DNA of 64,000 nt, taken from positions 88,989 through 152,988 of the forward strand of contig SVSD01000001.1 of assembly GCA_015064485.1 (NCBI GenBank), in the 5' to 3' direction. This document shows positions 25,756 through 47,343 of this stretch, one piece after another. The translations under genes were made by a program, and so were the position numbers. This DNA is from Oscillospiraceae bacterium. Lineage in GTDB: Bacteria; Bacillota; Clostridia; Oscillospirales; CAG-382. The notes under the pieces are model-generated. The model ran no database searches. It was not told where the DNA came from and was given only the letters and a program-made list of their open reading frames with translations. Positions within the stretch are counted from its first letter, which is position 1. The number at the start of each line of letters is the position of its first letter.

Positions 25756-26989
25756 ACCCGAAATACTTTCGCCCTGCGGAAATTTTGAAAAACTACGCTT
25801 TGCTGTGCGATACGGTGCGGATGCTGTTTATCTTGCGGGAAAACAGTTTGGTATGAGAACGGCTTCCGATAATTTCTCGGACGAAGAGCTCAAAGAAGCA
25901 ATAGATTTTGCACATAGTCACGGAGTAAAAGTATATATAACCGCAAATGTTATGCCCAGGGAAAGCGAACTTGAAGCCTTCGGCGAGTATATTTCTTTCT
26001 TAGGAAAGATAAAGCCCGATGCGATAATCGTCGCAGATCTCGGAGTTCTTTCTCTGGTAAAGGAAAAGGCTCCCGGGCTTGAAATACACATTTCAACGCA
26101 GGCGAATACGGTAAATTCCCGTTCCTGCCGTATGTTTTACGAACTTGGTGCAAAAAGAGTGGTTCTTTCAAGAGAGCTTTCGCTTGAAGAAATCAAAAGA
26201 ATCAGAAGCGAGATCCCCGAAGACCTTGAACTTGAAGCTTTTATTCACGGAGCTATGTGTGTTTCCCATTCGGGGAGATGTCTTTTGTCAAACTTCTTTG
26301 TAGGCAGAGATGCAAACCACGGTGCCTGTGCCCAGCCCTGCAGATGGGAATATCACGGAGACGGGCTTCATGCCGATATATTTGAAGTAAAGCGTCCCGA
26401 TATACATCTGTCGGCACTTGAAAACGAAAGAGGAACTTTTATTTTTTCATCAAAGGATATGTGTATGATAGAACATATCCCCGAGCTTGTTGATGCGGGT
26501 ATCAACAGTTTCAAGATCGAGGGCAGGGTTAAAAGTGCGTACTATACCGCAATTACAACAAATGCATACAGAACAGAGCTTGATAAATACTTTGCAGACC
26601 CCGAAGGTTATTCTTTTGACGGCACAGCCTTAACCGAGCTTGAAAGCGTAAGCCACAGAGAATACTGCACAGGATACTTTTTCGACCATCCGATGCAGAA
26701 TGCACAAATAACAAAAAACGGCGGGTACATAAAAGAAAAAGCTTTTCTTGCAACAGTTGAGCGCTTTGATGCAGAAACAGGAAGAGCATATCTTATACAG
26801 CGAAACAAAGCCGTCTGCGGTGACGAAGCTGAGATCATAACTCCCGGCGGATGCGCAAGAAAATTCATTCTTGAGGATATGCAAAACGAAAAAGGCGAAC
26901 CTATCGAATCCGCCCCTCATCCCCAGATGATTTTTTCTGTTAAAATGCCCTTTGATGTTAAAGTCGGAGATATAATCAGAGGAAAATAA
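25739..26989 (+). CDS. Peptidase U32 family protein
   Basis: KPEILSPCGNFEKLRFAVRYGADAVYLAG.. and ..EAFIHGAMCVSHSGRCLLS.. U32 signature. Confidence 0.8.
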   Translation: MQLRNKPEILSPCGNFEKLRFAVRYGADAVYLAGKQFGMRTASDNFSDEELKEAIDFAHSHGVKVYITANVMPRESELEAFGEYISFLGKIKPDAIIVADLGVLSLVKEKAPGLEIHISTQANTVNSRSCRMFYELGAKRVVLSRELSLEEIKRIRSEIPEDLELEAFIHGAMCVSHSGRCLLSNFFVGRDANHGACAQPCRWEYHGDGLHADIFEVKRPDIHLSALENERGTFIFSSKDMCMIEHIPELVDAGINSFKIEGRVKSAYYTAITTNAYRTELDKYFADPEGYSFDGTALTELESVSHREYCTGYFFDHPMQNAQITKNGGYIKEKAFLATVERFDAETGRAYLIQRNKAVCGDEAEIITPGGCARKFILEDMQNEKGEPIESAPHPQMIFSVKMPFDVKVGDIIRGK

Positions 26990-27003
26990 AAAGTTAAAAA
27001 CGC

Positions 27004-27040
27004 AAAAACAGACCAAAAGCAGTTGCTTTGGTCTGTTTTA
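27004..27040 (+). terminator. Terminator of the U32 peptidase gene
   Basis: aaacagaccaaaagc / gctttggtctgttt stem plus T-run. Confidence 0.75.
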
Positions 27041-27122
27041 CTATGATATGGTTGGAGCGTACTTTTCGGTTTTTATAATACCATTCTTTCGGCGGCGAAA
27101 GCCTTCTCAGGCATCACATCCT

Positions 27123-27197
27123 TTGCCTTTAGCATACGAATAACAAAAAGGAGCACCTTTCGGTACTCCTTTTTGTTATGGCGCGCTGCAAGGGACT
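27123..27197 (-). repeat. Distal copy of 75-bp direct repeat: tRNA-Arg(ACG) last 19 nt + its terminator + 18 nt
   Basis: Identical base-for-base to 27323..27397 by eye. Offset exactly 200 bp. Confidence 0.9.
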
Positions 27198-27322
27198 AGT
27201 CTTCGCCTTCGGCTCATCCTCCCTGCTTGTAAATGCTTCGCATTTCCTTCGCACCGCTCGCTACAAAACAGCCGTTTAGGCTGTTTTGCTTTACGCTCTC
27301 GCCCTCTCAGTGTTCGAGTCCC
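27198..27322 (-). repeat. 125-bp insert between the two tRNA-Arg 3'-end copies (repeat family B)
   Basis: Read in tRNA sense it starts gggactcgaacactgagagggc, which is the reverse complement of the host T arm. It contains the hairpin aaaacagcc-taaac-ggctgtttt. Homologous to 47132..47245. Confidence 0.8.
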
Positions 27323-27397
27323 TTGCCTTTAGCATACGAATAACAAAAAGGAGCACCTTTCGGTACTCCTTTTTGTTATGGCGCGCTGCAAGGGACT
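27323..27397 (-). repeat. Proximal copy of the 75-bp direct repeat (includes the functional tRNA 3' end and terminator 27341..27378)
   Basis: See 27123..27197. Minus-strand terminator ggagtacc-GAAA-ggtgctcc plus T-run. Confidence 0.9.
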
Positions 27398-27455
27398 CGA
27401 ACCCCTGACCTTTTGGTTCGTAGCCAAACACTCTATCCAGCTGAGCTAGCAGCGC
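27379..27455 (-). tRNA. tRNA-Arg (anticodon ACG), CCA encoded
   Basis: Minus-strand read gcgctgctagctcagctggatagagtgtttggctACGaaccaaaaggtcaggggttcgagtcccttgcagcgcgcca. 77 nt. Confidence 0.9.
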
Positions 27456-27480
27456 AAGGGTAACTTTCGTTAACTCCTAT

Positions 27481-27509
27481 ATATTATCATAAAAGACTTT
27501 GTTTGTCAA
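27481..27509 (-). promoter_or_regulatory. Promoter of tRNA-Arg(ACG)
   Basis: Minus strand TTGACA (27509-27504), 17-nt spacer, TAATAT (27486-27481). Confidence 0.6.
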
Positions 27510-27587
27510 TATGCTTTTGAGAAAAAATGTAAAGATTTTTAAGTGCTTTTTTGGTTGTTTTAACCGAATATTTGTTGCTGACCATTT

Positions 27588-28226
27588 CTAAACAATTCCT
27601 TCCATCTCATTTAATCCTATCACATACGACGGAATTCCCTCTTTTGCCGGAAACAGCACATCTTCATCATAATAAAAGGCTACTCCCCTTGCTGTGAGAT
27701 AAAATCTGTTTTCGTCAAACAGCCTTTTTGCCTTAAATACCGCGTCGGGAAAATACGAAAAGCCTCCATCGGATGTCATAATTTTTGAGCATATTTCGTC
27801 TGCATAAAGCTTTTTTGCTTTTCTGTTTGTCGGGAAAATCCGGCTTGCTTTCAAGGGCTGAGGGTATTTCTCATTCAAAAGCCAGTTGTCCGTAAACCTT
27901 TCCTTCCTTTTTTCTTTTCCGTCAAAAAATGACGCGCTTGTGATAACGGACATATATTTATCGTCAATATAAGGGATATATGTATGCATCAAAGCAGAGC
28001 ATTTGAAATTTATATTTTGCATTCCCGGAGAAGAAAAAAGCTTTGTTTTACAGTATTTTTCAAATTCTTCTGCACCTTTTTTGTAAAAATCATTGAGCTT
28101 TTCTGTTACAGTATTTCTCTTCTCGCTTTCGAACGAAGGATAAGATATATTTATAAACAATATATCCTTGCCGTCTTTTTCAAGCGTTTCTTTGTTTTGC
28201 ACCATCTTATATGTCATATGCGCCAT
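27588..28226 (-). CDS. Hypothetical protein (possibly DUF3298/DUF4163-like)
   Basis: 212-aa ORF with no signal peptide. Family resemblance is weak and from memory only. Confidence 0.4.
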   Translation of the reverse strand: MAHMTYKMVQNKETLEKDGKDILFINISYPSFESEKRNTVTEKLNDFYKKGAEEFEKYCKTKLFSSPGMQNINFKCSALMHTYIPYIDDKYMSVITSASFFDGKEKRKERFTDNWLLNEKYPQPLKASRIFPTNRKAKKLYADEICSKIMTSDGGFSYFPDAVFKAKRLFDENRFYLTARGVAFYYDEDVLFPAKEGIPSYVIGLNEMEGIV

Positions 28227-47011: not shown

Positions 47012-47087
47012 CTGGGTGTGGCTCAGGTGGTAGAGCGCTACCTTGGGGTGGTAGAGGCCGTGGGTTCAAGTCCCGCCACTCAGACCA
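47012..47087 (+). tRNA. tRNA-Pro (anticodon GGG), CCA encoded
   Basis: ctgggtgtggctcaggtggtagagcgctaccttGGGgtggtagaggccgtgggttcaagtcccgccactcagacca. C1-G72 as in bacterial tRNA-Pro. 76 nt. Confidence 0.88.
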
Positions 47088-47127
47088 AAAAATACCGATA
47101 CCTTTTTGGTGTCGGTGTTTTTTATTT
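47088..47127 (+). terminator. tRNA-Pro terminator (first)
   Basis: 11-bp stem ataccgatacc / ggtgtcggtgt (two G-U pairs) followed by tttttt. Confidence 0.8.
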
Positions 47128-47131
47128 TGTA

Positions 47132-47245
47132 GGGACTTGAACCCTAAGAGGGCTTTTTGCGTAATGAAAACAGCCTAAATGGCTGTTTTTAGCAAAAAGG
47201 TGCGAGGCCTTTAGGCTGAGCAGTGCAGATCGCATTGCGATATGC
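47132..47245 (+). repeat. 114-bp insert between the two tRNA-Pro 3'-end copies (repeat family B)
   Basis: Starts gggacttgaaccc, the reverse complement of the host T arm gggttcaagtccc. Contains aaaacagcc-taaat-ggctgtttt. Homologous to the reverse complement of 27198..27322. Confidence 0.8.
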
Positions 47246-47269
47246 GTCCCGCCACTCAGACCAAAAAAA
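47246..47269 (+). repeat. Second copy of the tRNA-Pro 3' end (gtcccgccactcagaccaaaaaa)
   Basis: Identical 23 nt to 47070..47092. Offset 176 bp. Confidence 0.85.
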
Positions 47270-47305
47270 TCTCTGTACCGTATGGTGCGGAGATTTTTTT
47301 ATTTT
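47263..47305 (+). terminator. Second terminator after the duplicated tRNA-Pro 3' end
   Basis: 11-bp stem atctctgtacc / ggtgcggagat plus ttttttt. Same architecture as 47088..47127 but a different stem sequence. Confidence 0.75.
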
Positions 47306-47343
47306 GAAGGGACTTGAAGCCTTTCACAATTATTGAGAAAATC

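Follow-up and report, generated by a model that had tools for sequence, protein, structure and literature searches.

The repeated tRNA end at the tRNA-Arg(ACG) locus

The window analysed here is a stretch of 64,000 nucleotides (nt) from the genome of an uncultured Oscillospiraceae bacterium of the ruminant gut (assembly GCA_015064485.1, contig SVSD01000001.1, forward-strand positions 88,989 to 152,988; this genome is referred to as G000). At its tRNA-Arg(ACG) gene, the tRNA's 3' end and the terminator-like hairpin behind it occur twice with a period of 200 nt, and the 125 nt between the two copies (27198-27322) form, together with the distal 19-nt copy of the tRNA end, a unit of about 145 nt. 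This unit, a candidate tRNA-linked repeat (TLR), is the subject of the present report.

The preliminary description of this DNA had noted a perfect duplication of 75 bp, each copy composed of the last 19 nt of the tRNA, a hairpin and some further nucleotides, and on these points it was right. Plus-strand positions 27123-27197 and 27323-27397 agree at 75 of 75 positions, identity stops on both sides (the exact match extends by 0 nt in either direction), and each copy reads, in tRNA sense, AGTCCCTTGCAGCGCGCCA, the final 19 nt of the tRNA, followed by a hairpin whose GC-rich stem has an A run before it and a U run after it, and then by 16-18 nt more. The distal AGTCCCTTGCAGCGCGCCA, at 27179-27197, matches the tRNA-Arg(ACG) 3' end at 19 of 19 positions. 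When mismatches are tolerated, the similarity grows to 97 nt at 92% (27101-27197 against 27301-27397). An exact 75-nt repeat cannot be a product of chance in 64 kb, and the whole 598-nt intergenic region recurs at 100% identity in three independently assembled metagenome contigs (two from Joint Genome Institute samples, one from a European Nucleotide Archive sample), so that the arrangement must be real and stable in the population.

The segment between the copies had been taken for unrelated sequence; it is instead the conserved, covarying core of a family that we find at no fewer than 13 tRNA species. Covariance model R1 matches 27179-27323 with 92 bits, and the unit starts 55 nt behind the tRNA-Arg(ACG) 3' end on the same strand. 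Searching the window's own genome recovered a segment of ~115 nt, homologous to the 125-nt segment, behind tRNA-Pro(GGG), the second host tRNA of the window (Table 1). The terminator hairpins that enclose this second unit (47088-47129 and 47264-47306) are equal in shape and have different stems, whereas the pair at tRNA-Arg is identical. Outside the window, decayed single units lie behind tRNA-Glu(TTC) and tRNA-Glu(CTC) (G000 C9:24375-24498, minus strand, and C7:85447-85544, plus strand). Both start with GGGAATCGAACCC, the inverted T arm of tRNA-Glu, and have a common terminator, and the C7 copy is without the hairpin P4 described below. Unit-bearing tRNA genes in G000 are limited to these 4 of 43 (Arg-ACG, Pro-GGG and the two Glu genes).

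Anatomy of a unit

A consensus drawn from the alignment and common fold of 14 units from six genomes has the following order in tRNA sense. The unit opens with the local T arm in reverse complement, (A/G)GGGACTCGAAC, and continues with the short hairpin P2 (CCY-GAG-RGG) and the nested helices P3 and P4, of which P4 has the form AAAACAGCC-loop-GGCUGUUUU between the near-invariant flanks GCGUUAAG and UAGC. A conserved GGUGCGAR junction leads to P5, a variable hairpin closed by UGC/GCA, and CGAGCAG then leads to a further variable hairpin, P6. The unit closes with the final 18 nt of its local tRNA (G59 to A76, or from A58 in some units), and the unit's 5' start pairs with positions 59-63/65 of this copy to form helix P1, which leaves the acceptor 3' strand and the CCA unpaired.

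The predicted fold of the tRNA-Arg unit has an energy of -52.3 kcal/mol (z score -3.1). Across 62 units aligned by fitting to the covariance model, a procedure that biases the alignment towards the structure, 97.7% of the cells in paired positions are indeed paired; shuffling lowers this to 84.4%, and sliding the partner lowers it to ~50%. Double changes are seen in 17 of the 27 pairs. The same paired positions hold 57 G-U and 6 A-C cells, which assigns the fold to the tRNA-sense strand. A tRNA-like gene on the opposite strand was also considered, given a T-arm-like hairpin on the plus strand; this hairpin is the complement of the unit start, and the G-U and A-C counts disfavour that strand.

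Unit ends and host tRNAs

For 48 units at 42 loci, both ends were compared with the unit's own host tRNA. In 46 of the 48, the unit start contains the local 7-nt T loop in reverse complement, and all five T-loop variants present (TTCGAGT, TTCAAGT, TTCGAAT, TTCAAAT and TTCGATT) are tracked by the units behind them. At the other end, the tail is identical to the local tRNA at 18 of 18 positions in most of the first units of the 42 loci. There are two exceptions: at locus L035 the inverted loop is one base off the local T loop, and at locus L185 both ends fit a different tRNA-Thr allele from the resident one, which indicates that ends are inherited at least sometimes.

Distribution

Within the bacterial family of the source organism, covariance model matches occur in 39 of 151 genomes, in 8 of 15 genera and with no more than 15 matches per genome; across the class Clostridia they occur in 84 of 300 genomes and 48 of 178 genera. 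The surrounding sequence was fetched for 40 family matches. In 31 of them a tRNA on the same strand ends ~43-60 nt upstream of the unit; at L173 the tRNA is more distant, past another unit of the array on the upstream side; and the remaining eight, in whose fetched stretch there is no tRNA, are contig ends or later array units. The host tRNAs comprise at least 13 species (Arg-ACG and -TCT, Pro-GGG, Leu-GAG, -TAG, -CAA and -CAG, Met-CAT, Ser-GGA and -CGA, Thr-CGT, Glu-TTC and -CTC). Scans of the window region and of the related loci against Rfam returned tRNA and noise only, and none of its families matches the units.

An exact search for the P3b-P4 motif extended this distribution to the Coriobacteriia, where units have the same layout and model E values of 1e-10 to 1e-16, as in Slackia (behind tRNA-Ala), the cultured Adlercreutzia equolifaciens DFI.6.87 (tRNA-Gln(TTG)) and Eggerthellaceae (tRNA-Ser). 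Partial or weaker matches were obtained in Bifidobacterium leontopitheci and in one alphaproteobacterial metagenome-assembled genome (MAG). In the former (L199, 5303-5425), a P3-P4 module and following hairpins stand directly after the stop codon of a coding sequence; a tRNA-Leu(CAG) gene lies ~280 nt further downstream on the same strand, and we saw no tRNA-end copy there. The latter, a lake MAG (L209, VGDN01000130.1, 3050-3351), has a 123-nt tandem array with the exact GCGTTAAGAAAACAGCC..GGCTGTTTTTAGC motif and a CGAGCGAAGCGAGAAAAGCG stretch that resembles the consensus of RtT, an Escherichia coli repeat discussed below, on a short contig without a tRNA. This array could be a bridge between the Clostridia family and RtT, or it could be contamination.

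Gain, loss and exchange of units

The tRNA-Arg(ACG) site differs between genomes of the same genus. It has no unit in G008 and G001, only a decayed start in G009, one unit with its 3' copy missing in G004, one full unit in G000, and at least two units in G005; in G006, two units and a remnant stand behind a tRNA half that an unrelated integrase island of ~9 kb has displaced, and in G002 the units are interrupted by a gene of ~1.3 kb. In G017, from another genus of the family, the site is empty. Empty tRNA-Arg sites in relatives, which the preliminary description had suggested looking for, are therefore on record in G008, G001 and G017. At the level of strains no empty site was found, and every contig that encodes the identical neighbour protein has the identical array. 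Loci with two or three units are present in G006, G013, G012 and G002.

Two of these rearranged sites are worth describing in their own right. In G006 (L028, G006:C20:8200-10300, and L029), the ~9 kb island has a tyrosine-recombinase gene and sits in the anticodon loop of tRNA-Arg(ACG), and behind the displaced 45-nt 3' half comes the TLR array; one tRNA thus has integrase islands and TLR arrays as separate users. In G002 (L030, G002:C62:17500-19948), an open reading frame (ORF) of ~400 aa resembling an FAD-dependent oxidoreductase lies within the tRNA-Arg array, bordered on one side by a unit start that breaks off precisely between P2 and P3 and on the other by a degenerate tRNA-end copy and terminator. 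The ORF is perhaps cargo, perhaps an insertion unrelated to the array.

The best pair of empty and filled sites is offered by a Gly-Arg(TCT)-His tRNA operon, whose Arg-His spacer in G000 is an empty 8 nt. G012 has two units followed by the same 8-nt spacer, and G085, G107 and G128 have one unit each. The inserted block consists of a 55-nt spacer (S), the core and the 18-nt copy, and S moves with the unit instead of being a duplicate of the native flank, which refutes, at this site, target duplication by a simple staggered cut. A staggered-cut duplication of the tRNA end and its terminator, which would fit the tRNA-Arg locus of G000, was rejected as a general explanation: it fails at Arg(TCT)-His, and it fails where the terminators differ.

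Arrays show a polarity, in that decayed or truncated units are distal to the tRNA in most of the arrays read, and in G005 and G006 the terminator type differs between the tRNA-proximal units and the distal one. A tree of the cores alone has two lineages, each of which extends across many tRNA species, and near-identical cores stand on different tRNAs with fully local ends. The Arg-ACG cores of a single genus are divided as well, with G000 and G005 grouping with units of genus g5, and G002 and G006 with g1 Pro units. That either lineage can be found on the same tRNA within a genus implies that cores move or convert between loci.

The core also has a life away from tRNAs. In genera g4 and g5, an 88-nt P3-P5 module lies within another small hairpin-rich element, where it follows AAGGG, on the 3' strand of a hairpin unrelated to the unit, without any target duplication, and an orthologous site is filled in G077 (L042) and cleanly empty in G013 (L047: ...CAAAGGG|AGCTGTCG...). 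The host of the module in genus g5 is a dispersed, intergenic element of ~110 nt with ends ACAATCCTCCC and GAGGGATTGT, a 7-bp terminal stem and three inner hairpins (L042 3230-3428, L047, L050 and L039-L046), and some copies of it contain the 88-nt module.

Comparison with the E. coli tRNA-linked repeats

Knowledge of TLRs in E. coli goes back to 1978, and they still lack an accepted function or origin; they were reportedly treated by Egan and Landy in 1978 and by Rudd in 1999. In the literature that could be searched, they appear in enterobacteria only. There are 22 of them in E. coli, at ten loci with one to five per locus, and no function is known for them (PMC8144298). They are recognised by 18-19 nt that repeat the upstream gene's 3' end exactly, and by their position between dual terminators (Stenum et al. 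2021, PMC8144298). The TLRs of the rrn operons are flanked by the terminators T1 and T2. They arise when transcription reads through T1, undergo processing, and in vitro they bind Hfq and CsrA; for one of them, RrB, it has been proposed that the repeated 3' end directs cleavage by RNase E (PMC8144298).

The closest architectural parallel is RtT (RF00391). Like RtT, the units described here follow immediately after a tRNA, whose transcription unit they would share, end with its last 18-19 nt, and start with an inverted T arm or acceptor, diverged in RtT, that pairs with the copy. We examined the tyrT/tyrV RtT units of E. coli K-12 for this feature: positions 49-68 of tRNA-Tyr recur at their start, inverted and diverged, as GGGGAAGGAU-GAGAA-GCUUC, their end consists of 19 nt of tRNA-Tyr, and the outer helix of the Rfam model pairs GGGGAAGGAU with AUCCUUCCCC. 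As with E. coli TLRs in general, tandem arrays of 1-5 units are formed and no enzyme is encoded. The layout of 27123-27455 is also that of the rrA, rrB and rrF TLRs, namely gene 3' end, terminator 1, unit, 18-nt copy and terminator 2; in E. coli rrnB we checked the order as 5S end, T1, unit, 18-nt copy and T2.

Unlike RtT, the family described here has another inner helix topology, is hosted by Clostridia and Coriobacteriia and uses at least 13 tRNA species, and its core is found at non-tRNA hairpins too. The Rfam RtT model has no match in the window region at E values up to 10, nor at the related loci at E values up to 1, whereas the E. coli control scores 133-137 bits. The rrA, rrB and rrF TLRs differ from the window units in that they follow 5S rRNA, not a tRNA. 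They bind Hfq and CsrA through GGA motifs, and in rrB we saw no inverted copy of the 5S end.

Interpretation

We conclude that the 75-nt repeat at tRNA-Arg(ACG) is probably the period boundary of a TLR array, and that the sequence it encloses is a structured unit of a widespread TLR-type family. We would file this family as a new family or variant inside the TLR class, and not as a member of RtT; it is apparently undescribed. In tRNA sense, the locus would then read as tRNA-Arg, terminator-like hairpin, spacer, structured unit of ~145 nt, and hairpin and spacer once more. By analogy with rrB, and given the strand to which the fold belongs, we infer that the unit is transcribed by read-through from the tRNA promoter. 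Its tRNA-like 3' end might let the enzymes of tRNA 3' processing trim the resulting RNA, along the lines of the proposal made for E. coli RrB (PMC8144298). Arrays would grow, shrink and become homogeneous as their segments composed of tRNA end and hairpin recombine unequally or undergo gene conversion, and such homogenisation may have given the perfect 75-nt identity at tRNA-Arg, while new loci would arise by an insertion process that needs no gene inside the element. The identity had been read as the sign of a recent event; this is plausible, yet gene conversion within the array would account for it equally well.

Several observations weigh against this proposal. Sequence homology to the E. 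coli TLRs is not detectable in either direction, so the class is assigned by architecture: a genome-wide search of E. coli K-12 with model R1 returned nothing, a search of rrnB returned nothing either, and the best matches of R1 on RtT units, which are in register, reach only ~5 bits. The covariation of P1 is built in, because the tRNA is the source of both its strands, and the strand and covariation evidence as a whole would equally fit a folded single strand of DNA. P4 resembles an intrinsic terminator, so that transcription could stop inside the unit. At tRNA-Arg itself, the 75-nt segments on either side of the single intact core are identical and the 22 nt that come next strongly diverged, and recombination within an array does not, by itself, explain this locus.

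The repeat had originally been interpreted as the scar of a miniature or decayed integrative element, and several facts lend that idea some appeal. The direct repeat is indeed tied to the tRNA 3' end and runs from the T loop to the CCA, and an identity block of this extent is typical of tRNA attachment sites; integrative elements and islands that use the T loop, and their non-autonomous derivatives, likewise leave an intact tRNA and a direct repeat of its 3' end. The Arg(TCT)-His block can also be written as 18-nt copy, spacer S and core inserted at 58/59, which is the usual logic of an integrative element, tRNA-Arg(ACG) is in fact used by an integrase island in G006 (~9 kb, anticodon loop), and the distal decay of most arrays, with proximal units in G005 and G006 that look later-added, is seen in tRNA islands too. 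In such a scenario, an integrase-driven element would have entered by crossover in the T loop and later lost its interior. What lies between the copies, however, is a conserved module with a covarying single-strand fold, and not a set of decayed genes. The bracketed segment is, as had been remarked, too small for an integrase, and we would describe it as a miniature element without coding capacity. No recombinase lies within ~3 kb of either window locus, no transposase lies near them, no recombinase was found in any family member, and no recombinase-bearing relative of greater length was seen among more than 100 loci read or listed. An attachment site of the attR type should leave a core site, with inverted binding arms around the crossover, 5' of the distal copies, where instead the variable hairpin P6 stands, unlike a T stem or T loop, and the G006 island occupies another sublocation, upstream of the array. 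A search of the 151 family genomes for a core-less tRNA-linked shell (an inverted T arm with a 3' copy 20-50 nt on) gave a single, unrelated match. Taken together, the lack of a nearby recombinase, of a core-less shell and of a T-loop core site, and the failure of the Y1 transposase discussed next to track the family, make a decayed integrase island very improbable. The alternative wording of the preliminary description, another insertion mechanism directed at tRNA 3' ends, is a fair description of a miniature tRNA-end element.

The copy boundary after TTCGA suggested an origin from IS200/IS605 or from a TnpB guide. As in palindromes derived from IS200/IS605 and in insertions associated with repetitive extragenic palindromes and bacterial interspersed mosaic elements (REP/BIME), the core enters a hairpin stem at a defined position without target duplication and has a strand-specific fold. 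Unlike the IS200/IS605-derived palindromes, the units have ends that copy the local tRNA, and the Y1 (HUH) transposase (PF01797) is absent from G000, G013, G107, G113 and G118, which have many copies, and present in several genomes without the element; the idea was rejected, as the transposase does not track the family. Weak Y1_Tnp matches of the RAYT-like kind, in single ORFs of ~200 aa, were noted in five genomes of the genus, G002, G004, G005, G006 and G007 (for example G006:C10:3879-4268) and not in G000. A nuclease guided to the intact tRNA was rejected too, in that the cell's own gene would be a target as well. The 200-nt period and the perfect identity over 75 nt could finally be those of a one-off tandem duplication, or of an assembly artefact, with no element involved, a reading to which we give almost no credence. 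The identical sequence is present in three other assemblies, and homologues of the flanked segment, which had been proposed as a thing to look for, exist at three other loci of the genome and at hundreds of loci elsewhere; with so many copies and with empty sites in relatives, a one-off local duplication does not hold.

A more serious alternative is that the units are a self-propagating, enzyme-less mobile element, whose tRNA-specific ends are made anew from the target whenever it inserts, for instance through template switching at the T-arm hairpin or through priming by a 3' fragment of the tRNA, and whose RNA has no host function. The length of 18 nt is that of a 3' tRNA fragment and of the retroviral primer-binding site. 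This alternative draws on the two core lineages spread over many tRNAs, on near-identical cores with fully local ends, on the 88-nt module at a non-tRNA hairpin with a clean empty allele in a close relative, on the polarity of the arrays and the differing proximal terminators of G005 and G006, and on the occurrence of the family across phyla in gut taxa. Against it stand the facts that no insertion intermediate, circle or new insertion was observed, that concerted evolution through gene conversion between loci could mix core lineages too, that staggered-cut duplication is refuted at Arg(TCT)-His, where the 55-nt S travels with the unit, and that the ends at L185 fit a non-resident tRNA-Thr allele. 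On balance we think it unlikely. Of the ways in which new loci might arise, target-templated synthesis of their ends interests us most. A bolder extension, for which we would claim only a small chance, is that TLR-type units as a whole are a cross-phylum class of selfish structured nucleic acids with target-built ends, spreading with no enzyme of their own, of which the E. coli TLRs would be the enterobacterial branch.

If the units are TLRs, as we propose, then about a quarter of the sampled Clostridia genomes, together with Coriobacteriia, contain a separate family with the TLR architecture and strong covariation, and this provides a large comparative set for the question of why tRNA and rRNA operons trail units that copy their 3' ends. 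The inverted T arm, which covaries with the host tRNA, becomes a second defining feature of such units, and the sites described above are the first pairs of empty and filled sites for units of the TLR type. For genome annotation, the practical consequence is that repeats of this kind should not be read as integration scars.

Features and genes of the two window loci

The features of both loci are collected in Table 1. A simple terminator scan did not flag the hairpins of the 75-nt copies, because their U run sits within an extended stem. A decayed older unit beyond 27101 was considered and rejected, its alignment score being within the range of shuffles; only the 22-nt similarity is claimed.

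Table 1. Features of the tRNA-Arg(ACG) and tRNA-Pro(GGG) loci, in window coordinates.
Feature	Position	Strand	Basis or remark
Promoter-like site of tRNA-Arg(ACG), TTGACA / 17-nt spacer / TG-TAATAT	27481-27509	-	sole sigma-70-like match in 26900-27650
tRNA-Arg(ACG), intact; T arm AGGGG-TTCGAGT-CCCTT	27379-27455	-	ARAGORN; Rfam tRNA 62.5 bits
Proximal terminator-like hairpin, A5, GGAGUACC-GAAA-GGUGCUCC, U5; within proximal 75-nt copy	27340-27379	-	inverted repeat I3
Spacer from hairpin to unit; end of proximal 75-nt copy (copy reaches 27323)	27325-27339	-	sequence
TLR unit core: AAGGGACTCGAAC (inverted local T arm) first, then helices P2, P3/P4, P5, P6	27198-27324	-	covariance model R1, fold, alignments
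P4 hairpin AAAACAGCC/GGCTGTTTT of the tRNA-Arg unit	27265-27287	-	sequence
19-nt copy of the tRNA-Arg 3' end (A58 to A76), the unit's 3' tail; first 7-10 nt pair with the unit 5' start (P1)	27179-27197	-	
Distal hairpin (27140-27179) and spacer, same as 27323-27378	27123-27178	-	repeat comparison
Stretch that may be an older unit's decayed start, AAAGGATGTGATGCCTGAGAAGGC compared with AAGGGACTCGAACACTGAGAGGGC	27101-27122	-	all mismatches of the 97-nt family fall here
Strong 14-bp bidirectional terminator closing the locus; serves both the tRNA-Arg/TLR transcription unit and the peptidase U32 gene convergent with it	27005-27039	-	terminator scan
tRNA-Pro(GGG), second host tRNA of the window	47012-47087	+	ARAGORN
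Homologous unit behind tRNA-Pro(GGG): starts TAGGGACTTGAACCC (inverted local T arm), ends GTCCCGCCACTCAGACCA (18-nt copy, 47246-47263)	47130-47263	+	covariance model R1, 124.5 bits; tail 18/18
Start of one more unit, truncated, behind tRNA-Pro: AAGGGACTTGAAGCCTT	47307-47323	+	alignment beyond not significant

The genes near the two loci encode a peptidase U32, YceG, a DUF3298 protein, an ABC transporter, an FAD protein and GGDEF/EAL proteins.

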